Shown piece after piece: positions 4,769 to 49,651 of a stretch of 64,000 nucleotides of DNA. A program made the position numbers and the translations under genes. Source of the stretch: Candidatus Latescibacterota bacterium (GTDB taxonomy: Bacteria; Latescibacterota; UBA2968; UBA8231); the NCBI GenBank assembly GCA_965206595.1, contig OZ242214.1, forward strand, positions 4,000,001-4,064,000, written 5' to 3'. A model generated the notes under the pieces. That model worked only from the letters and a program-made list of their open reading frames with translations, searched no databases and was not told the DNA's origin. Numbering within the stretch: position 1 is the first letter of the stretch; each line of letters begins with the position of its first letter.

Positions 4769-6628
4769 CCTTTGTTATTCATTCAACCCGCGCATAAGCG
4801 GACATAGGCGCTTCCGAGACCCCTTCGCTTAGCCTCAGAGGCTTGCGTTCCTTCTATAGTCGGCTTTTTGGGTAGAGCCGTCTCCTTATCTCTACCGACC
4901 TTGTTGAAATTGTACGCGCCTTCTCGAAGACGCTTGCCTTTGCGAGCCCATCATCCCGACCGACCCGGCCTGCGCTTACGCCATCGCCGCGTCCACCGGT
5001 TTGAGCGTGGCCAGAAATCTCCACAGACGATCCCAGGCAGCCGCCGTCCCTTGGGTCAGGATGACGCCCACCCTGCGCCCATGCAAGGTGACGCGGGACG
5101 GCAGGCGCAGGTAGCGCCGTCGAAAACTGTCCAGGCTCAGGGCCGTCGTCGAGCGTCCGTATGTGCGGGGCCGCCCGCGTCGGGCCTCGGCGCGTTCGGC
5201 GGCCTGGCGGCCCAGGTGAAGCAGGTTGTAGGCCAGCAGGTTCAAGGTCAGAAGCGCCTGGTTGGCAGCGAAGGCATCCCGGGACGGGGTGCGCTGACGC
5301 GGCTCTCGACCCCGGTAGTGTTGCTTGCGACGGGTGGTAGAGGAGAGCTGAGGCTGGAGGGTGGAGCTCAACTCGCCGAGCATGCGCTCGAAAAGGCCGC
5401 GCTGACGATAAAAGGCGACCAGGTCGCGGCCGCTCATCGTCTGGGGACTCTGGTCGGTGATCAGGAAGAAGTGGCGGGCGATGGGCAGCTCTTCCGTCTC
5501 GGAAGGGACCAGGACCAACACCACCCGCCGGGGCTGCGCCCAGGACCTGGCTTGATAGCGCAGCTCGCGACAGCGAAAACCCTCTTCCCGCAGCTCTTCC
5601 GGGTGCTGCGCCAGCTCCTGCTGATAGCCTTCCACCCAGGCACGAGCCAGCTCCTCCAGGCGCGCATTCTTCTTGATGCGCGCCACGTACGAGGTGTCGG
5701 CCCGCGCTTCCAGCTCACTCAGGAAAGACCCGCTCACCGAGGCCGCGTCGAAGCGCAGGATGAGGCGCCGGGCCAGATGCGACTGAATCCAGTCCAAGCG
5801 CTTGCCGAGAGCCTCTGAGGCACCCTCATGGGCGTGCACGTTGCCCGGCCGCAGCACGGCACCGAAGAAATCGCCCGTCTGCGCCGAGCCGAGGAGCAGG
5901 GGATGGTACCCCGAGGCGTGGAAGTAGCCGTTGTATTCGACCCCCGCCTGGTGCCCGTGCGCCGGCATCGGCAGGGCATCCATGTCGACGGCCAACTCCT
6001 CGTATTTCATCCGTCCTTCCAGCAGCCGGCAACGAGACCGGGCGCTGCGCAGGACGGCTTCCTCCAACACCTCGCGGTTATAGGCAGTCGAGGCTTGCTC
6101 GAGCAGGCGCGACAGCGTCGGCTGACTGGCCAGTCCCTGCGGCCGGTCTTCGTCGCCGCTGCGCAACGGCGCCTGCCCTTTGCGATCGCTGACCGCCAGA
6201 CGCAGGATCGGATCTTGGCGCAACGCGTCGGCGTCGGCGGCGTGGGTCCAGCCCTGTGCCAGCAGCACGATCTGTGTGCGCAGCAGCTCCGGCAGCGGGT
6301 GCGTGATCTGGTCTTGGGTACGGAGATCCTCGAAGTGGGCGTCGACCCAATCCAGAACCCGGCTGTGTTCGAGCAGTTGACGCAACATCAGCGCACCGGT
6401 GTCGCTGCCAAGGTGGGTGGGGCGGGCTTCGATGTGGATGGAGCGGTTGAAAGACGGCTGAATCGGCCCGGCTTGCTCGGACTCGGTGTGTGACGGTAAT
6501 TCACCCATTGGGTGTCCTACTGTGTGATGGGTTCAAAGGGCGATACTGCCTTGTGTTTCCCTCTGAAATCTAAGCATGGGAGGCACCCAGTACAGCCCTC
6601 TCCACTAAAATTCCATGAATAACAAGGG
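4769..6628 (-). mobile_element. IS1380-family insertion sequence
   Basis: Terminal inverted repeats CCTTTGTTATTCAT (4769-4782) and ATGAATAACAAGGG (6615-6628) match at 13/14 and enclose a single DDE transposase. No target-site duplication. Confidence 0.88.
4976..6508 (-). CDS. IS1380-family DDE transposase
   Basis: SDTGALML, D.D.LRQDP, LASQPTLSR, D.D...HGHQ...YNGYF...YHPL, LRPGN, FYRQRG..E motifs. Confidence 0.92.
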   Translation of the reverse strand: MGELPSHTESEQAGPIQPSFNRSIHIEARPTHLGSDTGALMLRQLLEHSRVLDWVDAHFEDLRTQDQITHPLPELLRTQIVLLAQGWTHAADADALRQDPILRLAVSDRKGQAPLRSGDEDRPQGLASQPTLSRLLEQASTAYNREVLEEAVLRSARSRCRLLEGRMKYEELAVDMDALPMPAHGHQAGVEYNGYFHASGYHPLLLGSAQTGDFFGAVLRPGNVHAHEGASEALGKRLDWIQSHLARRLILRFDAASVSGSFLSELEARADTSYVARIKKNARLEELARAWVEGYQQELAQHPEELREEGFRCRELRYQARSWAQPRRVVLVLVPSETEELPIARHFFLITDQSPQTMSGRDLVAFYRQRGLFERMLGELSSTLQPQLSSTTRRKQHYRGREPRQRTPSRDAFAANQALLTLNLLAYNLLHLGRQAAERAEARRGRPRTYGRSTTALSLDSFRRRYLRLPSRVTLHGRRVGVILTQGTAAAWDRLWRFLATLKPVDAAMA

Positions 6629-7102
6629 ATGAAGGTAGTTGATCGTTGGGGAAGGGCGTCTGGGAACGCCGTAGTCTGTGGTTGCCTCCCCTACGAACGC
6701 GGTTGCCCCACCTACCGAAGCGGAAGTGGTCACAGGCGGAGCGACTCGGATGCCGAGGACATCGTTGACGTTGACTTGGTTCTGGAGTGCCTCGACATCT
6801 GATTTGACCAAGTCCTCGAGCGACGAAAAGTGCTCGCGCACTATATCCCTCAACATTCCCTGGATGTTGACCAGCGGTTTGTATCCGTTGATGTAGGGGA
6901 ACCCCAACTCGATCAGGACTGCGCTGATGTTCTGGTGCTTGCGCTCCACCGCGCCGCGCGTGCGGCCATCCAACCGAGCACGGAGGGCCTCGTTGTGGGC
7001 AGCTTTGTTGAACGGTTCACCGCGAAGTTCCGAAGCCAGCATATCGAGGTAGTCTCGAACAGTGGCTTCAACTTCCTGTCTGCTCCAATCGCTGAACTGC
7101 AT
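6629..7102 (-). pseudogene. N-terminal part of an HNH/DUF3883-type endonuclease gene, truncated by IS1380
   Basis: DWS..EVEATV.DYL.ML..EL.G..FNK...N..L...L.GRT.GAVE.KHQNISAVL..LG.PYI.GYKP is an N-terminal domain I recall preceding HNH or DUF3883 nucleases. The frame runs into the IS inverted repeat and stops at 6605. Confidence 0.7.
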
Positions 7103-7215
7103 GGTTCAGCATCGTACGAACGAGTACGAGGAACGCACAACTGGAACGGCGAATGCCCGGCAGTGGGAATGCCTCCGTCTTTCCACTTGCTGACCCACCT
7201 CGGGCACCTCCCTCC

Positions 7216-8484
7216 TCAGCCCGGCAGCAGGGCGTTCCACTGTGCCTCGCGGTCGGGATGGGGAGCGTTGGTCACCTGTTTCTTGCCATCGACGTAGATC
7301 CTCAGGTAGGAGGTCTCCAGGTCCGCGGTCTCGTGCAGCACGAGGCCGTCGATGCGGCAGCGCCGCGCCGCCCGGACGATGCTGCGCAGCTCCTGCGGCG
7401 TCGGGGTCCGCTTGGACAGGTTTCCCTCCCCGTCGTGGAAGTGGCAGATCATGTTCAGCCAGGTGAAAAGCTTCTTGCCGAAGCGCGCCGTCGTGTCGCT
7501 GTAGACCTCCCCCACCGACGGGTCGCAGGGGTTGAGGCGGCTGGTCACCACCACCACCGCGTCCACCAGGTCCTCGCGGCACCACCGGCCCAGGTCCATG
7601 CGGGCCCTCAGCAGGGCGCGCTCGGGGTTCTCCTTCTTCGAGTGTCCGGCGATGAGGATGTCGGGCTCCTCCGAGGTGCCCACCCAGACGGGCAGGGTCC
7701 CCGCCGCCTCGCGGACCTCCCGCAACAGCACCGTGTACGAGTCGCCGCGGATCCTCTGCAGGCGCCAGGCCAGCCAGGGGAGCTCCCGGATGCGCGAAGG
7801 CGGGGCGTCGACCCCGGTCTCCTCGCGCAGCTGTTTCAGCCAGGGCTCGTTGTACCCGTACCCGTCGTCCTCGTCCGGCTCGCCGGCATGGCTGCGGAAG
7901 CAGACGAAGAGGCCGTCCACGCCGTACTCCCGCACCTCCTCGAGGTGGTCGAGGTAGTACCGCCTTGCCTCTTCGTAGGCGTAGCAGGGGATCCCGGGGT
8001 GGTGGCTGCGGCCGTCGAGGCCCGACCAGTAGAGATGGGGGCGCTCGTCGTAGAAGGGGGAGGTGTTGCGCCCCCAGTGGCGGACGATGTGGAAGTCCTG
8101 CAGGGTCGCCCAGGCGAAGAGACGGATGCCGTTGCGCCGGGCGCTGTCGACGGCAACATCGAGGGGGTCCATGCCAGACAGCAGCTGCTCCCACGCCTCG
8201 GACTGGTCCGCAAGGCTCGGCACGGAGCGGCTGCGGTAGAGCCCCCGGGCGCCGGCAAGGGTGCGCCAGAGGATGGTCTCCACCCCGCGGCGGCGGGCCT
8301 TCTCGAAGATCTCGTCGATGTAGGCGGCCTCGGCGGCCCGGGGATCGTGCATGAGGAGCACGCCGTGGTCCAGGGTGAGGATTACCTCCCGGTCCGGTCC
8401 GGTGCCGGTCTCGCTTTCCGGCTTCGTCGGGCCGGCCCCGGCTTTGGGGCCCAGGTCCGGGGAATGGGCCCCGGCTGCAGTCAT
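7216..8484 (-). CDS. Putative glycoside hydrolase-like TIM-barrel protein (GHL10/DUF187-like)
   Basis: Only the C-terminal 422 aa of ORF 7216..10473 look protein-like: ETILWR, DPLDVAVDSARRNGIRLFAW, YGVDGLF, YGYNEP. Start is ATG 8484 or GTG 8493, overlapping the upstream stop. Confidence 0.6.
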   Translation of the reverse strand: MTAAGAHSPDLGPKAGAGPTKPESETGTGPDREVILTLDHGVLLMHDPRAAEAAYIDEIFEKARRRGVETILWRTLAGARGLYRSRSVPSLADQSEAWEQLLSGMDPLDVAVDSARRNGIRLFAWATLQDFHIVRHWGRNTSPFYDERPHLYWSGLDGRSHHPGIPCYAYEEARRYYLDHLEEVREYGVDGLFVCFRSHAGEPDEDDGYGYNEPWLKQLREETGVDAPPSRIRELPWLAWRLQRIRGDSYTVLLREVREAAGTLPVWVGTSEEPDILIAGHSKKENPERALLRARMDLGRWCREDLVDAVVVVTSRLNPCDPSVGEVYSDTTARFGKKLFTWLNMICHFHDGEGNLSKRTPTPQELRSIVRAARRCRIDGLVLHETADLETSYLRIYVDGKKQVTNAPHPDREAQWNALLPG

Positions 8485-8489
8485 CCCAG

Positions 8490-10847
8490 TCACTCCCGCG
8501 CGGTAATCTGGAAAGCGTAGAGGCGGGCGCGGTCGAGGGTGAACCGCAGGCGCACGGCCTGTCCCCGCCAGGGAGCCAGGTCGGCGACCACCTCGTCCAC
8601 GGCGTCCCCCTCGAAGACCGCCGCCTCCGGTCCCAGGGGATCCCCCGCCTCGTCGGCCAGCTCGACGCGGATGGAGCCGCCCCGGTCCGTGGCCGCATTG
8701 AGGCGCAGCTCGTCTCCGTCCACGCGGATCGGGCGGGTGCCGAGACGGCCGCACCCGTCCACCGGCTCGGCGTGGGCCACGCGGAAGGGCCGGCAGCGGG
8801 CGAAGGCCGGCTGGTACCGGGTCTCCTTGCCGTCGGCCCAGTAGCCCTCCCAGGTGGTGAAGTAGGGGGCGTCGGCGTGGTTGGGACAGCTGCGGCGGAA
8901 CTCCTCCAGGTCCTTCCACCCGGACATGATCCCGTAGCCGTTGTGGCGCGTGTTGATGGCCGTGTAGTGGTACCACCACAGGCCGCCGAGCTCGCTGTAC
9001 ATATAGATGTCGCGGATCATGCCGAAGTCGTAGGTGCCCGGGCCGTTGGACTCGATGAGGCTGTGCCGGTGCCCGGTGAAGCGCTTGAAGTGCAGCAGGT
9101 CGCGGGTCCAGATCAGCTCCGGCTCCTGCGTCTGCTCGATCCCCCAGTGGAGCAGCACCGAGCCGAGGTAGAGGTTCCGCCGCGGGAAGGCCTGGTTGAC
9201 CTTGTGCTTCCCCTTGTTGAGCGCGGGACGGCCCGGCGCGTCCCCCGGGGTGCCGAAGCGCTGCATGAGCCCCATGGCGTAGAACTGTGACCCCAGCCGG
9301 TCGTGTCCGTCCGGGCCCAGCACGAAGCGGCGGTCGTAGGTGATGCCGTCGGCGGTGGACATGACCGCCAGGCAGCGCAGGGCGAGGTGCATGTTGTCGT
9401 AGGTGGCGCCGTGGGGCGGGTAGGCGGGCGAGGCGGGGCGGAAGTAGAAGTGAAGCCGCTTTCCGTCCGACTCCTCCACGTGGCAGCGGATCGTCTCGCT
9501 GGTGTGCATCAGGTCCATGCCGACGCCGAGGTAGAGGACCGGCTCCCGCGTCAGCACGAGGTAGAGGTCGCCGCGCTGCTCGAAGGGCCAGAACTCCCCC
9601 TTGCGGGGACGGAAGGCCCCGCTCTCCCCGCCCTCTCCGTCCTGGTTTTCGAGGCTCCTGCAGCGGGAGGGGAAGTCCTCCTTGGCCGAGGCGATGAAGA
9701 CGTGGTCGATGTCGACGGGGCCGTCCCTCCCCGCATCGTAGAAGCGGAACTCCGCGTGCTCCAGGGCGTGGGCCCTCTGCCGTTCCGCCGGGGTGGGATC
9801 GCGGTCGTCGCTGAGGATGTTGTTGGCCGTGGAGCCGTCGTACTCGACGAGCCCGAGGGCCGGCTTCTCCCAGCTCTCGCCGTCCTCGCTGACCAGCAGC
9901 ATGCGCAGGCGGCTGCGCTCCTCGCGCGTGTCCTCCCGCTCGATGCGCCCGCCGCCGTTGCGGTAGACGGCCTCGTAGCGTCCGGCTTCCTCGTTCCAGG
10001 TCACGGACTCGAGGCCGAGCATCTCCTCGTCGTGGGGTTCGGTGGTGGCGGCCAGGGGCGCCGGGTTCTTGTCCATGGTGTCGGGGACGAACTGGACGCC
10101 CTCGGCCTCCTCGAAGCTGTAGTCGTCGACCAGCACCTCGGGATAGCCGGCCAGCTCGAGCACCTCCGGGGGCGGCGGCCCGGCGCCGGCCTGCTTCCAG
10201 AACTTGCGCACGCACCAGGGTCCCACCGGCTCGCCGCCCACCAGCGGCCGCAGGCGGATCCAGTACTCGCCGGGGCCCCAGCCGGCGATGGAGAAGGAGT
10301 GCTCCTGCAGCTCGTGGGTCAGGCTCAGGCGCCAGGGGCCGGCCAGGGGGGCGGAGCCTTCGCGGGAGGTGACGTCCGCCTCCACCTCGCAGCGGCTGAC
10401 GCGGCGGCGACGGATGCGGTAGAGGAAGCGGGCCTCGTCCTCGTCGAGGAACAGGGCCTGCCGCGGCGCGCACTCGATGATCTGCGGGCGGGCGTCGACG
10501 GCGATGACCATGCGGTCGGAGGGGAAGAAGCCGTGGGGGTCGAGGATGGTGGACCCGGAGACGATCACGCGGCCCTCGGCCATCAGCTGCACGTCGAAGC
10601 GGTACTCCCCCATGAGCCAGCTGTCCTCCCAGAGGCCGGGCCTGGGGTCGTGGCGCCCGTCGTCGACCAGCGGATAGAGGATGGGGACGCGGGCCTTGCC
10701 GTCCCGCACCTCCACCTCCTCCACCGTCAGCTCCTGGACGTATCCCTGGGGCTGGCGAACCCGGACCCGGGCGGTCAGGTTATCGGCGCCAGGCGGGCAG
10801 TCCAGGACCAGGCTCTTCCACCAGTAGCTGTTCTCGATGAACTCCAT
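8490..10847 (-). CDS. Hypothetical protein with GH32/GH43-like beta-propeller and C-terminal beta-sandwich
   Basis: SEDGESWEKPALGLVEYDGSTANN and terminal LRLNA...GSIRVEL.D..G...VRLRFTLDRARLYAF motifs; GAGG RBS before ATG 10847. Confidence 0.6.
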   Translation of the reverse strand: MEFIENSYWWKSLVLDCPPGADNLTARVRVRQPQGYVQELTVEEVEVRDGKARVPILYPLVDDGRHDPRPGLWEDSWLMGEYRFDVQLMAEGRVIVSGSTILDPHGFFPSDRMVIAVDARPQIIECAPRQALFLDEDEARFLYRIRRRRVSRCEVEADVTSREGSAPLAGPWRLSLTHELQEHSFSIAGWGPGEYWIRLRPLVGGEPVGPWCVRKFWKQAGAGPPPPEVLELAGYPEVLVDDYSFEEAEGVQFVPDTMDKNPAPLAATTEPHDEEMLGLESVTWNEEAGRYEAVYRNGGGRIEREDTREERSRLRMLLVSEDGESWEKPALGLVEYDGSTANNILSDDRDPTPAERQRAHALEHAEFRFYDAGRDGPVDIDHVFIASAKEDFPSRCRSLENQDGEGGESGAFRPRKGEFWPFEQRGDLYLVLTREPVLYLGVGMDLMHTSETIRCHVEESDGKRLHFYFRPASPAYPPHGATYDNMHLALRCLAVMSTADGITYDRRFVLGPDGHDRLGSQFYAMGLMQRFGTPGDAPGRPALNKGKHKVNQAFPRRNLYLGSVLLHWGIEQTQEPELIWTRDLLHFKRFTGHRHSLIESNGPGTYDFGMIRDIYMYSELGGLWWYHYTAINTRHNGYGIMSGWKDLEEFRRSCPNHADAPYFTTWEGYWADGKETRYQPAFARCRPFRVAHAEPVDGCGRLGTRPIRVDGDELRLNAATDRGGSIRVELADEAGDPLGPEAAVFEGDAVDEVVADLAPWRGQAVRLRFTLDRARLYAFQITARE

Positions 10848-12168: not shown

Positions 12169-12286
12169 GGCCGCTTGGGCCGGGTTTCGACGGGCTGTCG
12201 TTGCCGGGCCCCCTGTGTTTCAGGAGACACCATGGTATCCTGAGAACACGGGGGGCCGCAGCTCATCTGGAAGAGAACCGCCGGGA

Positions 12287-14485
<2,199 letters not shown>

Positions 14486-14885
14486 TTAACGGGGTTCTCG
14501 TTTCCGGACAAGGGATTCCGGCTCGGGAAATGGCGCAGGTTGGGGGGCACCACCCTTCGGCTGTAACGGCGGTACGGAGGACGGGTAGGGGTGAGGTGGG
14601 CATGGCGTCGGGGGCCCTCCTCGATTCGAGCTGCTCCGCCTGCGAAAATGCCCTGGGGTGGACGGCCCTGCTGGCCCGGGTGCTTTTTCGCGGACCTCAG
14701 CGGATGTCCGGCCACTGACCGAGTGAAGACAGTCTTCGCCGCGCCCTGGAGATGTTCCCCCAGGGCACGGTCCGCAACGCCGCCGAAAAAGCCTGTGGGG
14801 CCACCAAGAGGGGCCACCCCGCCCCTTGACCCCTGCCACAGTGGCAATTACGTACCCGTAACCAACCTCGATGGAGGTAAATACC

Positions 14886-15173
14886 ATGGCCGCCCCTGAA
14901 ACAACCCTGGTCGATGTCTCCGACTTGGTCCGTTCCGCCCTCCCTGAATTCCTCGGCGACGGCATAGTCATAGCCGACGTATACTCGGAATTCCTGCCAG
15001 GACCCGACGGTGATGACTATATCAGAACTACGGTGATCCTGGAGGATGATCACCCTGAACTCGATGCACGAACCCTGAACAAGTTCTCTCTGCACATCGC
15101 CCCGCTCTGCATGCAACGAGGCTTCGACCGACCGACCATCGCCTATGCCAACAGAAGCGAGATTCCGGTATGA
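14886..15173 (+). CDS. Hypothetical protein (95 aa)
   Basis: Strong GGAGGT RBS before ATG 14886 and natural amino-acid composition; family not recognised. Confidence 0.65.
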   Translation: MAAPETTLVDVSDLVRSALPEFLGDGIVIADVYSEFLPGPDGDDYIRTTVILEDDHPELDARTLNKFSLHIAPLCMQRGFDRPTIAYANRSEIPV

Positions 15174-15255
15174 CTGCCAGCAGCACCCAACCGGCCTTTC
15201 ATAATGCACTTTCAACGGAGTAACCGCGCTCGAAAAATCTGACAGGAGGGCTTTT

Positions 15256-16611
15256 GTGAACGACGATGTATTGCTGAGGTTCCTACGCAAGGGACTAATC
15301 GACGTAGGAGGCGATGACGACAAGCTCGGCCACTTGAGGCAAACGGCAGCCGATCTGGCCGGAATCCTCGAAAAGAGCCCGGCCAAGGCTTCGGCGTTCG
15401 CTCTTGTGGCGTTCGATCCTGATGTGCCGCCCAATGACCCGACCATCGCTGAGGCGGAAGAAGCACTACGCAAACGTTGGGAGACCTACGTCAATACATT
15501 TGCCGACACGCCAGTTGCGGTGTTTCGAGCCATGCTGTTGGATGCAGTGATCAAAGCCTGCGAGAAAAACGACACGGTGGCCGCGGCATTCGTTGCATCC
15601 GCGCGAAACGTGCTTCCGTTCATGGAGGTTGGCGAAGAGCGGGAAATCTGGGCTGACGTCGTCGCTGAAATCGAGAGGAAAGTGGAGGAGCGTGCTGAGA
15701 GGGAATGGGCAACACCTGAGTCGATTTCCGTGCCGGATATCAAGTTTGAGTCTGCCTCTGAGGTCGATATTCGTATTGTATCGAAAAAGACAAAGGCATC
15801 GAGCCTCAAGCCAAAGTTTGAGGCAGCTGCAGGACCTCACTCCATTAATCCTGAGGGAATACAGGGAGACACCGAAGGAAATCAGTACATGCCGCATGGC
15901 AATCCATATGAGTGGGTCTACCAGTTTGGCACGCTGATGGCTGAGGCTGTTGGAGATGCGATAAATCGGGCGGTTGGAAGTCTGTCTGTCGAAGGGCTCG
16001 ACCTGCCCGAATTTTCCCAAGACATAACGAACGTGATGTCCGAGCACCTCACGACCACATTGCAAGCCGTCAGCAGCGCCACGACCGGACTTCAGCGGCG
16101 TACGAATTTGCTGTGGTGGAAGGAGGCACTGTTTTCCCCGAGCGCTCGGAAGAGCTATCGCGAAATGTTGACATTCGACGCGGCGATGCTGATGGCTTTC
16201 GACATGCACCGAAATATCCCGACCTTCTCACCCGCGAGCGTCGCCGCGTTCCTGCGGGAGACGGTCATTGCGTTGCCAACGATGGATCAGGACGAGAAGG
16301 TTGCGATCAGGGAATTGGTAGAGAAGGCCCGCGATACCAGCATTCTGGAGGAGCTGAGAACGGAGGTAGGCAAACTGGTCGCCGCTCCTGCGGGTCGCAG
16401 CTCGATTCTCGGATTGATAGGGCATTCGGAGGCTGTGCCGCGAATCGACGACGGCACGTTTCGGGACTTCGTCGGGGTCAAGCCCGACACAATGCTCACC
16501 TTGCCGGATTGGTCGGTATGGATATTTCGCGAGCTTCAGGCGACTCGGGCCATTGCGGAAGCCTCCGCTCCCAAGCGGCGGACGGCTAGGGAGCGGAGGG
16601 CTGGGAAATAA
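15256..16611 (+). CDS. GTPase-associated system all-helical protein (GASH-like)
   Basis: AGGAGG RBS plus GTG start, predominantly helical-looking sequence, LLWWKEALFSPS...SYR motif, first gene of a double-GTPase operon. Confidence 0.75.
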   Translation: MNDDVLLRFLRKGLIDVGGDDDKLGHLRQTAADLAGILEKSPAKASAFALVAFDPDVPPNDPTIAEAEEALRKRWETYVNTFADTPVAVFRAMLLDAVIKACEKNDTVAAAFVASARNVLPFMEVGEEREIWADVVAEIERKVEERAEREWATPESISVPDIKFESASEVDIRIVSKKTKASSLKPKFEAAAGPHSINPEGIQGDTEGNQYMPHGNPYEWVYQFGTLMAEAVGDAINRAVGSLSVEGLDLPEFSQDITNVMSEHLTTTLQAVSSATTGLQRRTNLLWWKEALFSPSARKSYREMLTFDAAMLMAFDMHRNIPTFSPASVAAFLRETVIALPTMDQDEKVAIRELVEKARDTSILEELRTEVGKLVAAPAGRSSILGLIGHSEAVPRIDDGTFRDFVGVKPDTMLTLPDWSVWIFRELQATRAIAEASAPKRRTARERRAGK

Positions 16612-16616
16612 ACGCC

Positions 16617-17567
16617 ATGGCGGAATGTCCCCGGGAGACATGTTGGCCGGATATGGGCTGTAGTCTGGGCCACCTCGACCTCTCGAAGTGTCCGGCGCTG
16701 AAAGCGGACCGCACGGAAAAGGAGGACGAGGAAGCGTTGACGGAAGCGGCGGCCATGCCCTGGTCGGGAGGCGCGCTCGGGCTTACAGACCTCGGTTTCG
16801 TCGCAGGTCGGAACAAGCCGATCGTGCTGGCGATCATAGGACCGCATAAGGCGGGCAAGACCACGTTACTGGGAGCTTGGTATCTGTTGCTCGGAAAAGG
16901 TTTCCGACTGGACGACAAGCTGCGATTCGCAGGTTCCTGCTCGCTCGGCGGATGGGAGGTTGTTGCAAGCTCGCTACGGTGGGAGCCGGGTTCAATTCCT
17001 CCCGCGTTCCCACCGCACACGACCAGTAGCAATACACGCATCCCGGGATTGCTCCACTTGGCGTTCAGGCACGGGCAGGATCATCGCAGGGACTATGTGA
17101 TGACGGATGCGCCCGGCGAATGGTTCCAGAAATGGGCGATCAAGAGCGATGCGCCAGAGGCGGAAGGCGCGCGATGGGCTGCCGAACACGCCGACGCGTT
17201 CCTGTTGGTAGCGGATCGCGAAGCCTTGGCGGGAGAGGAAAGGGGCGCCGCCCGCAGCGGAATTCAACTGCTCGCGCGACGCTTGGCGGATGAGCTTAAA
17301 GGGAGGCCCGTCGCCCTTGTCTGGACGAAAGCGGATGTTTCGATCACGAGCAAGATGGAAGAAGCAGTGCGAAGCGCGGTGCGGAGGGTGATCCCGGAAG
17401 CCGTCGAGTTTGAGGTCAGCATCATGCCCGAGTCCGACAGTGCTGAGAACGAGCAGGGGTTCCTGAACCTTCTTGGCTGGGCTCTGGATGTCCGCCGACC
17501 GGCCGTACAGCTCCCTGAACCGGCGAGCGGCAATCTCGATCCCGTGTTCAGATTTGGTGCGAGATAG
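16617..17567 (+). CDS. TRAFAC-clade GTPase (double-GTPase system) with N-terminal Cys/His cluster
   Basis: G1 GPHKAGKTT, G3 DAPGE, G4 WTKAD; N-terminus CPRETC...CSLGH...C. Confidence 0.85.
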   Translation: MAECPRETCWPDMGCSLGHLDLSKCPALKADRTEKEDEEALTEAAAMPWSGGALGLTDLGFVAGRNKPIVLAIIGPHKAGKTTLLGAWYLLLGKGFRLDDKLRFAGSCSLGGWEVVASSLRWEPGSIPPAFPPHTTSSNTRIPGLLHLAFRHGQDHRRDYVMTDAPGEWFQKWAIKSDAPEAEGARWAAEHADAFLLVADREALAGEERGAARSGIQLLARRLADELKGRPVALVWTKADVSITSKMEEAVRSAVRRVIPEAVEFEVSIMPESDSAENEQGFLNLLGWALDVRRPAVQLPEPASGNLDPVFRFGAR

Positions 17568-17570
17568 ACA

Positions 17571-18404
17571 ATGGGAGTGCCCGACAGGTCGATCCTGGTG
17601 ATCGGGGAATCCGGCGTTGGCAAGTCTCACTACGGAGGCCAGCTGCTGAAGCGGCTGATGAAAGAGGACGGGCGCATCCGAATGGCGGGAGCAGCGGCCA
17701 ATCTGGAGCCCTTCGAAGCCGTTATGGCCAGACTGGATGCTGGGGTGTCGGCGGACCATACTTCCACTGCGGTCTACCATGAGAGCCGCTGGCCGGTTAT
17801 CGATGAAGAGGGACGCAAGGCCAACTTGATCTGGCCCGATTACGGCGGCGAGCAAATCAAGAACATCATCGACAAGAGGCGTCTTCCGCATGCCTGGCTG
17901 AACCGGATCGCCCAGTCCTCGGCTTGGCTCCTGTTGATTCGTCTGCAAAGGGCTCGGGTCGAGGATGACATCTTCTCCCGTCCTCTGACATCGCTGGAGG
18001 AGAGCAGCAGAGAGCCTGGGGAGGCGCCGTTGTCCGATCAGGCCCGCTTGATCGAGTTGCTGCAAATGCTGGCATATGTCCACTCCAAATCAGATAGCCG
18101 TAGGGACCGGCTACCGTGCCTCGTTGTTCTCCTGACATGTTGGGACGAGATGAAGAGTCCAGGGAGGCCGGTCGATGTCTTGCAGGAACGCCTCCCGATG
18201 TTTGGCGAATTCGTCGATAGCAATTGGGAGGATTCTTCGGTACTCGGACTCTCTGCTCTGGAACGAGCGCTGGACAAAGAGGTACCCGACGAGAGCTATA
18301 TCGCTCAAGGCTCGGAACAGTTTGGCTACGTGATTCTGGAGGACGGCAGTCGCTCCACCGATTTGACGCTGCCGATCCGGAAGCTTCTCGCCGAACCGGC
18401 GTGA
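17571..18404 (+). CDS. Second TRAFAC-clade GTPase (double-GTPase system)
   Basis: G1 GESGVGKS, G3 DYGGE, variant G4 LTCWD; starts 3 bp after the first GTPase. Confidence 0.85.
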   Translation: MGVPDRSILVIGESGVGKSHYGGQLLKRLMKEDGRIRMAGAAANLEPFEAVMARLDAGVSADHTSTAVYHESRWPVIDEEGRKANLIWPDYGGEQIKNIIDKRRLPHAWLNRIAQSSAWLLLIRLQRARVEDDIFSRPLTSLEESSREPGEAPLSDQARLIELLQMLAYVHSKSDSRRDRLPCLVVLLTCWDEMKSPGRPVDVLQERLPMFGEFVDSNWEDSSVLGLSALERALDKEVPDESYIAQGSEQFGYVILEDGSRSTDLTLPIRKLLAEPA

Positions 18405-18426
18405 CACTGGCGTCGGAGTTCGGGCC

Positions 18427-20931
18427 ATGCAGGTAGAGCAAGCCTTGTATGGCGAGTGTCGGGGTGGACACTCCCTGCTGGTGTCGAGCGTTAACGACGC
18501 GGTGTCGACGGCCATCGTCCAGCGCCTTGATCTACCCGATACGGCACCGCCGGGTGTCGAGTGGTCGCCGTTCCTTCGTGGCTTTCCGTACGAAGATCGA
18601 TATGTGCTGTCGCGGACGTTCCGCGATACAGGTGCAACGCGGGGCGGAATGGTCTTCTCGCACGCTCTCCTCGCTCCCCTGGATGAAATGGGGGAAATGT
18701 CGGATCTGCGGCCTCTTCTGAATCTGCTCGCAGTTTCAGACCAGCAACGGCCGGATGCGGTTACGCTGCAACTCGATGGCATAGAAACGGGGCTTCCGCA
18801 TGCTGAGGACCTGACGGAGGCCGCAGAGGCGCTGGGGACGAAAGCACAACTGCCGGTTGTGCGGCTTGGCCATGTGGGGTTTGATGACCTTGTCGTCGCT
18901 TTGTGGGCGCACCTGTCACCGCAAATCCGCCGAGGGTTCGCTTTTCGCCTCAGTTTCGACCCGCGTGATCTTGTGGAAACGCCGATGCCGGCGCTGGTAT
19001 GTACGCCCCGCGGGATGGAGGCGCGCTGGTCTGAGTATCCAGTGATCCGTTCGCCGGAGCGCCGGGAACCGGGCTCGCTCGCCGGGGCGATACTGAGCGG
19101 TCACGGAAAGGCAGCTCCCCTCGTCGAATTCATGCACGACGTGGGCGTCAAGCCGGCGACGTTTTCTGAGCTGCGATTGGTAGAGCAAGCCTATTGCCTC
19201 GACATTGGCGAGCCGACGTTTGAGCGATGTGTCGGAACCGTGAGGCTGATCGGGAAGCTGTCACCCGCTGCAGATGAGGGCGAAGAGGGGAAGAACGCTC
19301 TTGTCCGACGGTTGTGTGATCAACTGTCGGCAGCCAGCGCTGAAGATATTCTGCGGGTGCGGAACCTCGAGCTTTACGCTTTCCCCTCTCCGAACCGGGT
19401 GTGGAAGGCGCTCGAGGGATGGGTGGCCAAGAACAGCTTTTCCCCGGACCAGGATGTGGAAATGCTGTCCGTGTTTGAGGACGCCACCGCTGGCACCAAT
19501 GCTGTCCATGAGTGGGGAACCGCGGTACTGGACGGGTTGGCGGTCGCGACGGGCTCGCGCAGGACCTCCTTTCCCAAAGCCTTCTGGCGCTGGTTTCAGA
19601 CTCAACCCGAAATCGTAACCGCCGTGTTCCGCCATGTCCCCGTGGAAGCCGGCGTGGAGGAACGGTTGGCGAGGGCAACGCCGCGCAATCTCGATGAAGC
19701 GGCGGCGAAGAGACTCGCGACGGACGCTTTGTCTCGCGGATGGCTCTGTCTGCACGGGGCGGTGCTGGCGGCCATTGTCTCAACGTCGGATGCGGCGCGG
19801 CGCCAGGTCGCGGTCGATACCGATCTATCGTTCGTCGAAGGTCTCCGGTGGGCTCTTCGACACGCGAAGCCGGCAGAGGTCGTCAAGTGTGCGCTGGAGA
19901 TTGATGACCCGCGCCTGCCACGGCTTGCCGGTGAAGCTGTTGCCAAGGCACCAAGGCTATTGTCCAAGGTCAATCTCACGGCGATCAAGGCGCAGGCGAT
20001 TTGGCGCGAAGCTCTAACCATCGATCCTGAGACTTGGCGGGGCCCAGCCGATCCGCAGGTCGCGTTTCGTTCGATTCTCGATCATCGGTTGAGCGGCGGC
20101 GAGACGGATACTTCGCTGATTGAACGACTGTCGGATACACCCGTCGCAGATCTCGGAGGCTATCCGCGGCGGGTAGAGATTTGGTCGCGCATTGGTGGCG
20201 CGGCACTCCAAAAGCTACTGGCGAGAACCGCCAAAGGGTGGCTCGGGCAAGCAGCCAAGGTCGGAGTTCCGTTTGTCCCCGAACGGGAACTGCAAATCGC
20301 GATCTTGGAGAGCGAGGAGCTTGAGCAGACGCTGTACGCACTAATCCCCAACGGTGTTGGCGGCCTCGTTCGAATTGTGGCTGCTCTGAATCGGTACGAC
20401 GAGCAACGGTTTCTACGCTTGTTGGAAAAAGTGCTATCGCGCACAGCCTTGGTGGCAACTGAGGACGCCGAGGTTGTTGGACGTCTGGTGCTGGAACGTA
20501 GATGGGTGGACGTCACTGCCGAGCTGGTCGATCAATATCGAAGCGGACGGCGGGATCTTGAACCCGCGCTCCGAGCCTGTGGTGACATTCTCGGTTTCTG
20601 GGATCGTTTCGTTCTTGGGGTAGCACCGGTGTCGGAGGGGGAGAAGTGGAAGGGCTTCGAGGAGATGGCTGTCCAGCTCTACCCGGGCGGTCCGGACGAC
20701 CGCGAATTATGGGAGCGTGCGGGTGGAGACAACGCCGACTTGCCAACGCGGGATGATGGGCGGTCAAGATGGCGCAGAGCGGTGCGAGAGATGCGAAATG
20801 GAAGGGGACCGACTGCCCCGGAGCTGTTGGCCGCAATGATGGAGGATTTCCAAAACAATGAACGGATCCGCCATCTCGCCGGGGATCCTGTATTTAGTGG
20901 AGGCGTCCGGGATGATTTCCAAGATGAATGA
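18427..20931 (+). CDS. GAP1-N1 domain protein with C-terminal effector-associated domain (EAD1-like)
   Basis: N-terminus EQALYGE..GGHSLL..S...D....RGGMVFSHAL; C-terminus LYPGGPDDRELWERAGGD...GRSRW is homologous to the tail of the next gene. Confidence 0.78.
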   Translation: MQVEQALYGECRGGHSLLVSSVNDAVSTAIVQRLDLPDTAPPGVEWSPFLRGFPYEDRYVLSRTFRDTGATRGGMVFSHALLAPLDEMGEMSDLRPLLNLLAVSDQQRPDAVTLQLDGIETGLPHAEDLTEAAEALGTKAQLPVVRLGHVGFDDLVVALWAHLSPQIRRGFAFRLSFDPRDLVETPMPALVCTPRGMEARWSEYPVIRSPERREPGSLAGAILSGHGKAAPLVEFMHDVGVKPATFSELRLVEQAYCLDIGEPTFERCVGTVRLIGKLSPAADEGEEGKNALVRRLCDQLSAASAEDILRVRNLELYAFPSPNRVWKALEGWVAKNSFSPDQDVEMLSVFEDATAGTNAVHEWGTAVLDGLAVATGSRRTSFPKAFWRWFQTQPEIVTAVFRHVPVEAGVEERLARATPRNLDEAAAKRLATDALSRGWLCLHGAVLAAIVSTSDAARRQVAVDTDLSFVEGLRWALRHAKPAEVVKCALEIDDPRLPRLAGEAVAKAPRLLSKVNLTAIKAQAIWREALTIDPETWRGPADPQVAFRSILDHRLSGGETDTSLIERLSDTPVADLGGYPRRVEIWSRIGGAALQKLLARTAKGWLGQAAKVGVPFVPERELQIAILESEELEQTLYALIPNGVGGLVRIVAALNRYDEQRFLRLLEKVLSRTALVATEDAEVVGRLVLERRWVDVTAELVDQYRSGRRDLEPALRACGDILGFWDRFVLGVAPVSEGEKWKGFEEMAVQLYPGGPDDRELWERAGGDNADLPTRDDGRSRWRRAVREMRNGRGPTAPELLAAMMEDFQNNERIRHLAGDPVFSGGVRDDFQDE

Positions 20932-22079
20932 ACCGCGCCGAACTGGAGGCGGGGGGCGTGGATGAAGCCTTGGAAAGGGCGGCCGAGGTGACAGGGGATT
21001 TTGCCACCGGACATGCCATCGTCATCGGCGTCGCGAATTACAGGAACGTGCCGGGGCTGCCCGAAGCGGTGCTGAATGACGCGCGGGACGTGGCCGCGGT
21101 CCTGCGATCCAACGCCTACTGTGGATATGAGCCACGTGACGTGCACGTGTTGCTCGACAGCGACGCCACGCTGGAGCGGATCAGGGCAGCCTTGGCTACC
21201 GTGGCCAAGACCAGCCGACCGGAGGACACGGTCGTCATCTTCTTCTCCGGGCATGGTGCCCTTCTCGGTGATCCCGTCGACCCCGAAAGCGCGCTACTGC
21301 CGGTCGAATGCGATGGACGGACACTGGATAGCACGAGCTTGTCCGAGGCGGAATTCTCTTCCGCACTTCGGGGATTCGCCGCTAAACGTCTGCTTGTCCT
21401 GATCGACGCTTGCCACTCCGCAGGCGCCGGGAGCTTCAAGGGCGGAGGAGCGGAGGAGTTACGGTCTCTCGGCTATAGCGAAAAGTCTCTTGGACGCCTG
21501 GCCCAGGGCGTCGGCCGCGTCCTTATCGCGTCTTCCCGGGCCAGCGAAGTATCCTGGGTACTGCCAAAGGCTCGGAACAGCGTGTTCACCTCCCATCTTT
21601 TGGATGCGCTGCGGGGCCAGGCGCGCACGAGCGGGGACGGGCTGATTCGGGTGTTCGAGGTCTTCAATCATGTCTCGGAGATGGTGCAGCGCGAGATGCC
21701 GGGGCGTCAGCATCCGGTCTTCAAGGCGAGCGACCTTGAGGACAATTTCCCTGTCGCGCTCGACCGGGGCGGGGTGAAATCGGACGCTACGGCGTCGGAT
21801 GCAGTAGGGGAGTCCGATGTCTGGAGCCAAATGGCAGAGATGATGCCGGGTCTTTATCCAGCAGGGCCGATGGATCAGGAAGTCTGGGCGCGTGCGGGCG
21901 GTGATCCGTCTCGCTTGCATCTGCAGGAGACAGGGCGGGTCGCCTGGTTCAAGGCTTTGCGTATGCTCCGTCAAGGTGGTGGAGGGGCAGGAATTCGCAA
22001 AGGAAGCCTGATTGAAACTGCGCTTGAGGACTACCCCCACCATCCGGTTTTGCGTGCACTACTGCGTGCACTACTGTGA
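20928..22079 (+). CDS. Caspase-family (peptidase C14) effector with C-terminal EAD1-like domain
   Basis: Catalytic dyad motifs FFSGHG and LIDACHS; tail LYPAGPMDQEVWARAGGD...GRVAW; ATGA overlap with the upstream gene. Confidence 0.88.
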   Translation: MNRAELEAGGVDEALERAAEVTGDFATGHAIVIGVANYRNVPGLPEAVLNDARDVAAVLRSNAYCGYEPRDVHVLLDSDATLERIRAALATVAKTSRPEDTVVIFFSGHGALLGDPVDPESALLPVECDGRTLDSTSLSEAEFSSALRGFAAKRLLVLIDACHSAGAGSFKGGGAEELRSLGYSEKSLGRLAQGVGRVLIASSRASEVSWVLPKARNSVFTSHLLDALRGQARTSGDGLIRVFEVFNHVSEMVQREMPGRQHPVFKASDLEDNFPVALDRGGVKSDATASDAVGESDVWSQMAEMMPGLYPAGPMDQEVWARAGGDPSRLHLQETGRVAWFKALRMLRQGGGGAGIRKGSLIETALEDYPHHPVLRALLRALL

Positions 22080-22406: not shown

Positions 22407-22787
22407 CGACCTCAGCGGCTGTCCGGCCTGTGGCGGTCGCCTGCGGATCGTGGCCGCCCTGACCGATCCGGCCTCGATCCGGACCTGTCTGGAGGGGGTA
22501 GGGCTGCCGGCGGTGCCCCCGCCGAGGGCCCCGCCTCAGCCGCAGTTCAAGTTCGCCGTTTGACCTCCTCCGCATTGGCTCCCTGCGCGGTGAGCGGTAC
22601 GGAGGAGGGCGCCCTCAAGTACCGGGTTGACCCCTGAAAGGCGCCAAAATCCTTTACAACGGTAGTCGGAGCAGTCCCGAACGATTCGGTGCGAGGACAA
22701 GCAATTCACCAGGGACCCTGCTGGACCCTCGCGTACGATTTCAGCGAACTGCATAGTACCGATATCGGTGCCTTATTTTTCCTATAC
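22407..22787 (+). mobile_element. IS91/ISCR-like relic: transposase C-terminus plus oriIS-like end (copy C, most complete)
   Basis: Encodes CPACGGRLRIVAALTDPASIRTCLEGVGLP..PPPRAPP*, typical of Y2 HUH transposase C-termini. About 220 bp later it ends in TTCCTATAC, like the ISCR oriIS end as I recall it. Confidence 0.75.
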
Positions 22788-24607: not shown

Positions 24608-25922
24608 GTGGCCCATGCGCTCAGTCCTCGAGCTCCAGGATGAAGGGACCTTACTCGTCGCGGACGGCAATCACGGTGAGTACCGTCCGCGCAGTGATGA
24701 GTTCGGCCAAGGAGAGTATGCGTTCATTCGGGCAGCAGACCTGGAAAACGGACAAGTGCTCTTCGACGCAGTGCAGCGGATAAACGACCAGGCCCTGGCG
24801 CGGATTCGGAAGGGCGTTGGCCAAGGCGGCGACGTCCTCTTCTCCCACAAGGGCACGGTTGGTAAGCTCGCGCTCGTTCCGCTCGACGCCCCTCCTTTCG
24901 TCTGCTCGCCTCAGACCACGTTTTGGAGGACGCTCGATGAGGAGCGTCTTGATCGGCGATACCTGTACTACTTCATGCGCTCCAACGCATTCACAGACCA
25001 GTGGATGGCGCGAAGTAATGAGACCGATATGGCGGCTTACGTCAGCCTCACGGCGCAGCGGCAGTTAAATGTTGCTCTGCCAGAAATCGACGAACAACGC
25101 GCCATCGCCGGTGTTCTCGGTGCGCTGGACGACAAGATTGAGCAGAACCGGCGTACGGCGCGGGCGCTGGAGCGACTGGCGCAGGCGATCTTCCAGGCGT
25201 GGTTCGTCGACTTCGAGCCGGTAAAGGCCAAAGTCGCCGGCGCGGCCTCCTTCCCCTCTTTAGCCCAGCCCGTCTTCGACGCCCTGCCCACCCGCTTCGG
25301 CGATTCTGAGATCGGCCCCGTGCCGAAGGGGTGGGAGCTGAAGCCGATCGCAAACATTGCGACGTTCCTGAACGGACTGGCACTTCAGAAGTACCCGCCT
25401 CGCGGCGATGGCGAAGACCTGCGCGCGGTCAAGATCGCCCAACTCCGCAAGGGTTCAGCAGAAGGTGCCGCCTGGGCGAACAGCGATGTGGCCGAGCAGT
25501 ATGTGATCGGCGATCGTGATCTGTTGTTCTCGTGGTCGGGCACCCTCGAAGCCGAGTTCTGGTTCGGCGGCAAGGGCGCGCTGAATCAGCACCTGTTCAA
25601 GGTCACGTCGTCGCACTTCCCGAGTTGGTTTTGCCTACTTTGGATTCGGCAGCACCTGCCGTGGTTCCGCGCCATCGCAGCAGGTAAGGCAACAACGATG
25701 GGGCACATCAAACGTGGACACCTTCAAGAAGCGCCGGTCGTCGTCCCTCCGAATGAGGTTCTTCATGAAGCGAACGAAGTGATTGGTACGCTCTACGATC
25801 TCTTCGGCCAGCTGATGATTGAATCGCGGAAGCTGGCGGCGATGCGCGACGTGCTCCTTCCGAAGTTGCTGTCCGGCGAAGTGCGGGTACGGGTGGACGG
25901 AGGCGCCGATGGTGAGTCATGA
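24597..25922 (+). CDS. hsdS: Type I R-M specificity subunit
   Basis: Two TRDs separated by [18 protein letters not shown]...LE..AQAIF.AWFVDF; ends [16 protein letters not shown]. Confidence 0.93.
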
Positions 25923-26631
25923 CCGCCCCTTCGAACTCCATAGCTGTCGCGAACTCTTCGAACGGTATCCAGCCTCAACGTCGTTGAGACCGGCAGTCGA
26001 GGTCATCGAACGGACAATCCAGGATGAACCTGGCATTGCATTCACACACTGCCGAGGCTTACTGGAAACCGTATGTGTGACGATACTCGCGGACCGCGGC
26101 ATAGAGATCCCGCCGAATCCAAAGCCGAACTGGCTCATGACACAGGCAATAAAGACACTGCAACTCACAGCGCTGAACCCCGACGACAAGGCAGCTGAAG
26201 ATGGCGTTGCTAGTATCCTGCGGGGACTGAATTCACTGGTTGACGGTGTCGTGGCCTTGCGCAAGAGCCAAGGTGTCGGGCCACATGGTCGGGACGCGCT
26301 GGCATCTGTGCTTTCTGTTGATTATGCGATGCTGACCGCGACAGCGGTAGATGCGGCTGTCGGGCTTATGTTCCGGCTACATCAAGAGCAAATCGGCCGC
26401 GATCCGATCAACCACTTGAGATTCGGAGTTCACGCAGATTTCGACAGTTTTCTTGACGGCAAGTACTCAGACATCGAGATCGAAGAGGTTCCGGTCAGTG
26501 CGAGTCAGGCGCTTCATCACCAGGATCCCTTGGCTTATCGCAAGAGCCTTGTGGAGTTCAGAAACCGATCCGAAGCGGAGAACGAGGAGATAGCGGAAGG
26601 CGAGAGCATTTCCGAGGACGCCGATGGATGA
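25909..26631 (+). CDS. Abortive-infection C-terminal (Abi_C/HEPN-like) family protein
   Basis: A...CRGLLETVC.TIL...ILRGL..LV.G...LR...G..PHGRD pattern; overlaps both hsdS and hsdR. Confidence 0.7.
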   Translation: MVSHDRPFELHSCRELFERYPASTSLRPAVEVIERTIQDEPGIAFTHCRGLLETVCVTILADRGIEIPPNPKPNWLMTQAIKTLQLTALNPDDKAAEDGVASILRGLNSLVDGVVALRKSQGVGPHGRDALASVLSVDYAMLTATAVDAAVGLMFRLHQEQIGRDPINHLRFGVHADFDSFLDGKYSDIEIEEVPVSASQALHHQDPLAYRKSLVEFRNRSEAENEEIAEGESISEDADG

Positions 26632-30583: not shown

Positions 30584-30693
30584 GGGGTAGGGCTGCCGGC
30601 GATGCCCCCGCCGAGGGCCCCGCCTGAGCCGCTGTTCGATTTCGCCGCCTGACCTCCTCCGCGATGGGCTCCCGGCACCGGTAATTTCCTAAC
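30584..30693 (+). repeat. IS91/ISCR-like relic (copy D)
   Basis: ggggtagggctgccggcgatgcccccgccgagggccccgcct...ttcgccgcctgacctcctccgc matches 22495-22575 and ends in ATTTCCTAAC. Confidence 0.8.
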
Positions 30694-30873
30694 GGATTCC
30701 TTGTTCGCGACGTGGAACCCCATCGGGATGACTTGAGGGCACGGGTCAGCGGTCTTGCGTCGGGTTCTGGGGAGGGAACGCGGATCGAGCTGCTTGCGCT
30801 CTACCTGCCATTCGAGAGCCTGGATGGCATTGGGGAGGCGATGGTTCAAAGGCGTTCAGGAGCGGAACAATGA
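30694..30873 (+). pseudogene. C-terminal remnant of the helicase partner gene (possibly HamA-like)
   Basis: Start-less frame GFLVRDVEPHRDDLRARVSGLASGSGEGTRIELLALYLPFESLDGIGEAMVQRRSGAEQ* whose TGA overlaps the helicase ATG. Confidence 0.6.
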
Positions 30874-33800: not shown

Positions 33801-34147
33801 GTGTTTCGGCGCTGAGTCGGGTGTCGGGGATCGATTTCGACGCGCTTTCCGAAGCCGACAAGCGGCGGATCAACGCACTGCCCGCCATGATCTATCACGG
33901 CGTAAGCAGCGAAGATGCGGTACTCATGCGGATGAATGCCGCCCCGCGCAGCGCGGCCGAGGCGTTGGGGAGCCTCTACCGGGATGTCACCGGTGAGGAT
34001 GAGGGGCGGTATTCGGTGGGAACGGCGCGGCGTTTCCTGCAGGGACTGGGCGCCGATGAATGGGACGGGGTGAGACCGGCAGGCGCGCCGCTGTCCGGCA
34101 CGGGATATAAGCGGGTCTGGGAGGTTCTCTCCGGAGAGGCGAGCTGA
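30870..34147 (+). pseudogene. Ski2-like DEAD/DEAH helicase (HamB-like), frameshifted near 33311
   Basis: LPTSGGKT, ATPEK, DEAH, GVHHAGL, TSTIAQGINFP, NLAGRAGR. Protein-like sequence switches frame at CAGACCTCGGATAC into ORF 33215..34147. Confidence 0.8.
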
Positions 34148-49641: not shown

Positions 49642-49651
49642 CGGCACCCTA

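Follow-up and report, generated by a model that had tools for sequence, protein, structure and literature searches.

The GTPase-centric conflict systems were predicted computationally by Kaur, Burroughs, Iyer and Aravind (eLife 2020, PMC7159879), whose section on the GAP1-N1 subtype describes a core of GAP1, GASH and two DO-GTPases, one of them with a zinc ribbon, which is combined with variable effectors including caspases. According to this section, a GAP1-N1 protein with the effector-associated domain (EAD) EAD1 at its C-terminus is paired with an effector that bears EAD1 as well, and homotypic coupling of the two was proposed, with recruitment as the favoured outcome. Table 1 of that paper gives GAP1-N1 systems in 262 organisms and no link to multicellularity (P 0.9998). 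Here, we analysed a window of 64,000 nucleotides from a Candidatus Latescibacterota bacterium (GCA_965206595.1, contig OZ242214.1, positions 4,000,001 to 4,064,000), in which positions 15256-22079 of the plus strand carry a cassette of five co-oriented open reading frames (ORFs), encoding in this order GASH, DO-GTPase2, DO-GTPase1, a GAP1-N1 protein with EAD1 and a caspase with EAD1. A first-pass annotation, made from the letters of this DNA alone, had attributed the cassette to the GASH/GTPase/GAP1/EAD systems predicted by the Aravind group, and the section by Kaur et al. indeed describes this architecture. In our judgement, the chances are about even that the cassette is a horizontally acquired, intact GAP1-N1-type GTPase-centric anti-invader system, the protease of which is recruited via the EAD1 pair and brings about abortive infection.

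Compared with the published GAP1-N1 description, the cassette has all components named there in the order described, and nothing essential differs. GASH, the paired DO-GTPases and the same EAD on core and effector are present, and GAP1 lies downstream of a DO-GTPase, starting 22 nt after DO-GTPase1. A caspase is a minority effector in the survey as given in that section, the commonest being a calcineurin-like phosphoesterase. RefSeq names a homologous five-gene set on a Skermanella plasmid likewise, namely 'GTPase-associated system all-helical protein GASH', 'GTPase domain-containing protein', 'hypothetical protein', 'effector-associated domain EAD1-containing protein' and 'caspase family protein'. 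The architecture is already published, and the cassette is one more intact member of a kind known from prediction only; taken alone, the locus is ordinary, a known predicted system correctly annotated within a defence island. New here are the finding that the five-gene form is mobile and conserved across phyla, with hosts in culture, the placement of the cassette, together with a Type I restriction-modification (R-M) system, in a 16-kb insertion, and a structural argument from a predicted model that EAD1 may be a CARD- or death-like domain. In the full texts searched, only the two papers of the Aravind group and a few later mentions of EADs without tests dealt with these families. The first-pass annotation knew of no resolved mechanism, and we found neither another paper naming the families nor, by sequence or profile searches of the PDB, a solved relative of GASH, either DO-GTPase or GAP1 (no match below E 0.08).

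Several better-described systems resemble the cassette in part. In the animal apoptosome (Apaf-1/caspase-9, CED-4/CED-3), an NTPase-controlled scaffold and a caspase-family protease likewise carry the same small helical adaptor. However, the switch of our cassette is a TRAFAC-class GTPase pair with GASH and not a STAND ATPase, its adaptors are C-terminal, its protease is metacaspase-like, and EAD1 has no sequence similarity to CARDs. A STAND (NB-ARC/NACHT) ATPase is absent from the five cassette proteins, the NTPases of which are the DO-GTPases. The cassette may work alike, though not as a member of the apoptosome/inflammasome family. The bacterial CARD-like gasdermin systems, as presented in the preprint of Wein et al. 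(bioRxiv 2023, PMC10312443), are similar in having an adaptor, there a death fold, on the protease and at the C-terminus of an NTPase regulator, together with variable effectors, and the CARD-like adaptor was found experimentally to be essential for anti-phage defence. In these systems, trypsin-like proteases are combined with an NLR-like ATPase and a separate effector (gasdermin or nuclease/phospholipase), whereas the window cassette has no effector besides its protease, and the GTPase/GAP1/GASH set takes the place of the regulator. Type IV Thoeris, as described in the preprint of Rousset et al. (bioRxiv 2024, 10.1101/2024.10.24.620036), shares a terminal caspase-family effector and the absence of a substrate gene from the operon; its caspase-like protease degrades cell proteins indiscriminately, but it is activated by N7-cADPR from a TIR protein, while our cassette has no signal-making enzyme and carries an adaptor domain instead of a ligand sensor. 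Finally, the EACC1-caspase two-gene system (system 4 of Kaur et al.) provides the best NCBIfam match of the caspase domain (NF047832, 'caspase, EACC1-associated type', 1.2e-29), but with 103 bits this match stays below the cut-off of 140 bits, an EACC1 gene is lacking, and the caspase is partnered by GAP1 instead.

The five genes and their relatives

The five ORFs were found exactly where the first-pass annotation had placed them, with spacers of 5, 3 and 22 nt between successive ORFs and a 4-nt overlap of the GAP1/caspase pair, in agreement with its claim of five tightly coupled genes. All five proteins were assigned by Pfam with every match exceeding the curated cut-off, including the models for GASH, DO-GTPase, GAP1-N1 and EAD1 that it had proposed as a check. 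The features of the cassette are as follows.

15256..16611, plus strand: GASH, all-helical constant component, 451 aa with a GTG start; Pfam PF19994, 2.3e-98, residues 7-431
16617..17567, plus strand: DO-GTPase2 with an N-terminal four-Cys segment resembling a zinc ribbon, 316 aa; Pfam PF19993, 6.5e-65
17571..18404, plus strand: DO-GTPase1, 277 aa; Pfam PF19975, 1.4e-74
18427..20931, plus strand: GAP1 scaffold, 834 aa, GAP1-N1 and C-terminal EAD1
18433-18729, plus strand: GAP1-N1 domain of GAP1, residues 3-101; Pfam PF20012, 5.8e-28
20638-20883, plus strand: EAD1 of GAP1, residues 738-819; Pfam PF19955, 2.4e-10
20928..22079, plus strand: caspase/metacaspase-like protease, 383 aa, C14 domain, linker and EAD1
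21006-21749, plus strand: Peptidase_C14 domain of the caspase, residues 27-274; Pfam PF00656, 1.1e-23
21822-22073, plus strand: EAD1 of the caspase, residues 300-382; Pfam PF19955, 3e-8

The protease is metacaspase-like. Its catalytic residues His109 and Cys162, which the first-pass annotation had regarded as an intact dyad, are invariant in 42 of 42 aligned caspase-EAD1 homologues, and its D-A-C-H-S motif aligns with D-S-C-H-S-G of metacaspases, the best PDB sequence match, in which the Cys motifs coincide, being metacaspase-1 (7qp0, E 9e-7). The S1 residue that confers Arg/Lys specificity on metacaspases is presumably the Asp located two positions ahead of the catalytic Cys, and because the protease is of this type, it probably cleaves after Arg or Lys. 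A second Peptidase_C14 domain in the same genome (contig C1, 2302161-2302826) lies in an 851-aa open frame without EAD1.

Both DO-GTPases, which are paralogous, have G4-like motifs and a conserved Walker B Glu, in D-A-P-G-E of DO-GTPase2 and in D-Y-G-G-E of DO-GTPase1. In DO-GTPase2, C4, C9, C15 and C25, Walker A with K81, DAPGEW (Walker B) and WTKxD are invariant in 23 of 23 sequences, as are Walker A with K18, WP[DE]YGGEQ and [ST]CWDE in the 23 sequences of DO-GTPase1, which is present as a single copy in its own genome. The four-Cys segment, read as a ribbon from its Cys pattern with no model matching, fits the zinc ribbon of Kaur et al. The GASH profile is matched over positions 2-397 of 398, and the protein's N-terminus is conserved from residue 1 in its homologues. 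Among the five proteins, conservation is lowest in GAP1, the mean identity of homologues to the window proteins being 0.46 for GAP1 (about 0.4 over residues 200-730), 0.52 for GASH, 0.58 and 0.59 for the GTPases and 0.57 for the caspase; in GASH, residues 151-275 form the most variable stretch (0.31-0.40 identity). These variable stretches, GASH 151-275 and GAP1 200-730, are candidate sensing surfaces. Among the Pfam families at E<=1, only GAP1-N1 and EAD1 were recognized in the 834 aa of GAP1, and neither this protein nor its 120 listed homologues gave a Pfam match to GAP1-M or GAP1-C, it being unsure whether our copy of Pfam holds such models.

No sixth conserved gene belongs to the cassette, as the flanking ORFs upstream and downstream have no homologues in 66 related loci; this agrees with the remark of the first-pass annotation that the operon contains no obvious substrate. 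The ORF 14697-15473 on the minus strand was rejected as an extra gene, its matches being antisense shadows of the GASH N-terminus. The intergenic DNA shows no conservation, a Rfam scan of window positions 14300-36500 gave no match at E<=0.1, and a promoter and terminator scan was uninformative, with one promoter-like site against 1.8 expected.

Relatives of the cassette are widespread. Of 8000 scored candidates, 707 proved to be relatives of the caspase-EAD1 protein at E<=1e-5, the 120 listed being 66-100% identical, and GAP1 has 280 relatives at E<=1e-3, of which the 120 listed are 59-100% identical and possess the same two Pfam domains. The 66 related loci were gathered from species-representative genomes with the caspase alignment, the single-protein query with GAP1 having returned none. 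A full caspase-EAD1 is encoded by 24 of them (L005-L028), and 21 of these 24 have all five genes, including L016, in which the match to DO-GTPase2 is limited to residues 1-243 of 316. The three incomplete loci look decayed: GASH of L005 matches over residues 1-354 only and lies away from the other genes, in L006 GASH is missing and DO-GTPase2 is truncated, and L009 retains just the C-terminal part of GAP1. The other 42 loci gave only caspase-domain matches or none, except for L029, a cut contig with a partial GAP1 tail. The hosts include Binatia, Alpha- and Gammaproteobacteria, Acidobacteriota, Gemmatimonadota (Palauibacter) and Actinomycetota (Micromonospora, Actinomadura), and those in culture include Pseudomonas chlororaphis PCL1601, Bradyrhizobium hereditatis, Bombella, Gluconacetobacter, Luteimonas, Solimonas, Tropicibacter, Poseidonocella and Yersinia similis. 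On a Leptospira phage record (L072, KF114878), positions 2963-9548 encode GASH, DO-GTPase2, DO-GTPase1 and GAP1-N1 with EAD1, followed by PNP_UDP_1 and an integrase; the PNPase of this record shows no EAD1 by Pfam at E<=0.01. The same record, which derives from a phage or a plasmid-prophage, also annotates a peptidase U49 protein.

The EAD1 adaptor

The first-pass annotation had stated that GAP1 and the caspase end in the same domain of about 80 aa, and both tails did prove to be EAD1 by Pfam, matching each other in BLASTP with 25 identities over 57 positions (E 6e-12). A six-frame search of the whole genome of 7,053,161 bp revealed EAD1 in these two tails only, and, together with their similarity, this means that the shared tail is not a product of chance. 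In an alignment of 47 tails (24 from caspases and 23 from GAP1), G21, P22, W28, R30, G33, W48 and G58 are invariant in both kinds. The caspase tails have in addition an invariant four-Gly loop, which the GAP1 tails lack, and the two tails are therefore not equivalent. Phylogenetic analysis separated caspase tails and GAP1 tails into two clean clades with 99/96 support, which have several well-supported sister pairs in common and both conflict with taxonomy. It follows that the tails diverged before the cassette spread and now travel together, the matched sister pairs fitting a co-inheritance of both domains.

In partial correlations over 21 loci, from which the GTPase signal had been removed, the caspase EAD1 agreed best with GASH (0.56, noisy and unexplained) and the caspase domain best with the middle region of GAP1 (0.61, also noisy), while neither of them tracked the EAD1 of GAP1.

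When 1.84 billion entries were searched with a profile of the 47 tails, 864 cluster representatives reached E<=1e-3, and E<=1e-10 was reached by 686. Among 23 scanned of the 150 listed relatives, EAD1 occurs on GAP1, on caspases, on a PNPase, in the arrangement PNPase+EAD1+TIR and, in two copies, on a trypsin, and in many of the 23 it is the sole recognized domain. The presence of PNPase, TIR or trypsin in the place of the caspase, together with the set of core and PNPase on the Leptospira record, fits a constant core with a swappable effector.

An AlphaFold2 model of the caspase tail (pLDDT 94.2, pTM 0.85) predicts a compact helical bundle with helices at 3-17, 24-30, 44-56, 66-76 and 81-90 and a three-residue helical turn at 35-37, so that the predicted EAD1 has the six-helix bundle in about 90 residues by which a death fold is recognized. 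Foldseek gave nothing below E 2 with this model, the top TM scores being about 0.5, to death domains. The closest structural neighbour of this model is the CARD of Apaf-1, followed by CED-4/CED-3 and caspase-9 CARD entries, all with modest Z. Of the 50 structural matches listed, 43 either name a CARD, death domain, DED or pyrin in their title or are aligned over the N-terminal ~90 residues of apoptosome or RIG-I proteins, which we take to be their CARDs; the other seven are those at ranks 2, 3, 15, 31, 32, 34 and 45. Judged from the model, EAD1 probably has a death-like topology, its homology to death folds being unproven. The first-pass annotation had treated this likeness as an existing proposal, which does not hold for the published sections: in Kaur et al. 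(PMC7159879), the Death-like domain is EAD3 (bDLD1), and EAD1 is called just an all-alpha domain with a distant relationship to EAD6 and EAD7, death domains being cited as functional precedent. The 2021 follow-up by the Aravind group also keeps EAD1 apart from the bDLDs.

Acquisition and proposed mode of action

The GC content of the cassette is 0.55-0.63, compared with 0.67-0.72 in its flanks, and a search for GAP1 in 40 relatives (two from the same genus, 22 from the same family and 16 from the same class) was negative throughout. Positions 15256-22079 have no match in either same-genus genome. In one of these (G002), the distance from the katG-like gene to the PDC-M23B-type helicase gene is 1,287 bp, whereas it amounts to 16,193 bp in the window, the additional ~16 kb consisting of the five-gene cassette and the Type I R-M system. 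The two genes on either side of the insertion are the following.

12285-14498: katG-like gene, 92% identical to G002
30692-34000: PDC-M23B-type helicase gene, 94% identical to G002

A segment just upstream of GASH (14857-15198) is 89% identical to positions 6405303-6405658 of contig C3 of G002, just past the helicase gene; owing to this displacement, the insertion must have come with a local rearrangement. Low GC, absence in relatives and the insertion relative to G002 are signs of horizontal transfer. Downstream of the cassette, the window is a defence island, in which the Type I R-M system, with an AbiJ/Abi_C gene, comes directly after the cassette and is followed by many PADLOC systems, with PDC-M23B, PDC-S31, a Hma system, HEC-01, PDC-M07 and a TIR-PNTD protein. 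In the 21 complete loci, a census of the flanks within 8 kb (123 of 125 flank ORFs scanned, no background control) counted R-M genes in five, other defence or toxin-antitoxin-type genes in three and mobile-element genes in nine. It is this context, the defence island and the signs of horizontal transfer, that points to a role of the cassette in conflict.

The explanation that we prefer, recruitment of the protease in an anti-invader system, refines the published one. A sensor and switch made up of the two GTPases, GASH and the variable GAP1 stretches would respond to a cue from the invader. EAD1 of GAP1 would bind EAD1 of the protease and tether it to the scaffold, and a nucleotide-dependent rearrangement or oligomerisation of the scaffold would bring protease domains together and activate them. 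The metacaspase-type protease, probably directed against Arg/Lys, would then degrade many cell proteins, leading to growth arrest before the cycle of the invader ends. Gating by the GTPases, EAD1-EAD1 binding and activation of the caspase are steps that we infer. A dedicated substrate gene would be unnecessary, and its absence is no problem since the caspase-like protease of type IV Thoeris kills by indiscriminate proteolysis.

Several observations weigh against this explanation or against a death-fold nature of its adaptor. PADLOC v2 models were matched by none of the four core proteins, and the cassette is therefore absent from the defence systems listed there. When the trees of 21 taxa were compared by the mirror-tree method, the two EAD1 tails gave the lowest correlation of all domain pairs (r 0.62), which fell to a partial r of 0.02 once the GTPase signal was removed; there is consequently no specific co-evolution signal, in what is a weak test with such short domains. 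In 3 of the 21 complete loci (L008, L011, L013), the caspase gene and GAP1 converge with their tails facing each other, and coupling in one operon is thus not obligatory, the effector not always being co-transcribed with the core. The census of the flanks, moreover, has no background control. Pfam at E<=10 gave none of the 47 tails a match to the CARD, Death, DED or PYRIN families, a PDB profile search with EAD1 returned no death-fold chain at E<=10, and no experiment on any member of this class of systems was found in the literature.

As the main rival explanation, EAD1 of GAP1 could act as an inhibitory tether that sequesters the protease in an inactive state until a trigger or GTP hydrolysis releases it and the caspase EAD1 self-assembles and activates it, the adaptor contact thus having the opposite sign with unchanged parts. 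Such a tether would be in line with the toxicity that follows, in the bacterial gasdermin systems of the preprint by Wein et al. (PMC10312443), from deletion of the C-terminal CARD-like domain of the NLR-like ATPase. In the window cassette, too, the adaptor is C-terminal on the regulatory protein, and the non-equivalence of the two tails, with their four-Gly loop in the caspase only, speaks in the same direction; the section by Kaur et al. (PMC7159879), however, favours recruitment, and we consider the tether unlikely. Alternatively, instead of killing by bulk proteolysis, the protease might process one defined target (GASH, GAP1 or a host protein encoded elsewhere) as the true effector. Proteolytic cascades are discussed as a theme of these conflict systems in the paper of Kaur et al. 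(PMC7159879), GASH is without an assigned role, and the partial correlations of the caspase EAD1 with GASH (0.56) and of the caspase domain with the GAP1 middle region (0.61) give a weak hint of this kind. But no sixth gene is conserved beside the cassette, its movement between distant phyla argues against a lineage-specific host substrate, and a PNPase, TIR or trypsin in the effector slot implies no protease substrate, which renders a specific cascade improbable in our opinion.

A further explanation regards the cassette not as host immunity against phages but as a weapon or addiction module that mainly serves plasmids, integrative and conjugative elements or prophages through exclusion of competitors or post-segregational killing. 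GAP1 relatives reside on eight plasmid records, five of them conjugative, and on the Leptospira phage record beside an integrase, and integrase, transposase, Tn7-like or type IV secretion system genes occur within 8 kb in 9 of the 21 complete loci. The window cassette, by contrast, is chromosomal and lies in a defence island by R-M, Hma and other systems. Defence systems are commonly carried by mobile elements, and this explanation therefore overlaps with the preferred one; as an account of its own, we regard it as very improbable.

A more far-reaching reading would see in EAD1, the commonest bacterial effector-associated domain, a true CARD-like death fold that has diverged in sequence, and in the cassette a GTPase-driven bacterial 'apoptosome', where two paired CARD-like domains link a TRAFAC-GTPase switch of non-STAND type with a metacaspase-like executioner. 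We put this forward tentatively and with considerable doubt; if true, death-fold signalling in bacteria would have been connected with two or more classes of NTPase switches that are unrelated to each other. With one simple effector, a single adaptor pair in the genome and wide conservation, the cassette offers a clean entry point into the class, and close homologues are at hand in the cultured, non-pathogenic Pseudomonas chlororaphis and Bradyrhizobium hereditatis. The class bears on EADs as homotypic couplers, on EAD1 as a death fold, on the gating of caspase-type death by GTPases in bacteria and on the origin of apoptosome- and inflammasome-like signalling.

Neighbourhood of the cassette

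The right boundary of the cassette and the R-M system next to it contain two further features.

22407-22787, no strand assigned: dispersed repeat of ~380 bp at the right boundary of the cassette
25819-26631, plus strand: Abi_C/AbiJ-like gene between hsdS and hsdR, overlapping the end of hsdS

The dispersed repeat gave 36 blastn hits in its own genome, including itself, and dozens in a same-genus genome, the hits often being clustered 3-15 kb apart. Further copies are located in the window at 30584-30676 and 36043-36368, so that the repeat sits between defence modules, one copy following the caspase gene, one following hsdR and one preceding HmaC, and it could be a marker of cassette boundaries or of recombination sites. 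The repeat has no Rfam match and contains an ORF of 57 aa with a C-x-x-C motif; a resemblance of this ORF to the tail of an IS91-family transposase was considered and dropped, as Pfam gave no match.

Downstream of the R-M system, PDC-M23B extends over two overlapping ORFs of the plus strand, positions 3-792 of the model corresponding to 30870-33581 and positions 793-1060 to 33215-34147, and the helicase gene therefore looks split or frameshifted. Between 34001 and 36000, the GC content falls to 0.477, compared with 0.62-0.67 on both sides, and a PDC-S31-like gene (35151-36257) lies at the edge of this stretch. The Hma genes, all on the minus strand, are spread over 23 kb (36387-59935), with HmaC at 36387-39704, HmaB at 44871-48116 and HmaA at 56300-59935. 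HEC-01A/B (40228-42275), PDC-M07 (43567-44874 and 52455-54241), a Pol-beta nucleotidyltransferase and a STAND-like AAA_35 protein (54599-56248) are encoded between them. A TIR protein at 49652-51094 on the minus strand matches the PADLOC entry 'Aga_TIR-PNTD1-PNTD2' of the Argonaute-associated class. It is followed on the same strand by a 565-aa ORF (48136-49833) with no Pfam match at E<=1, which might encode a divergent short Argonaute partner.

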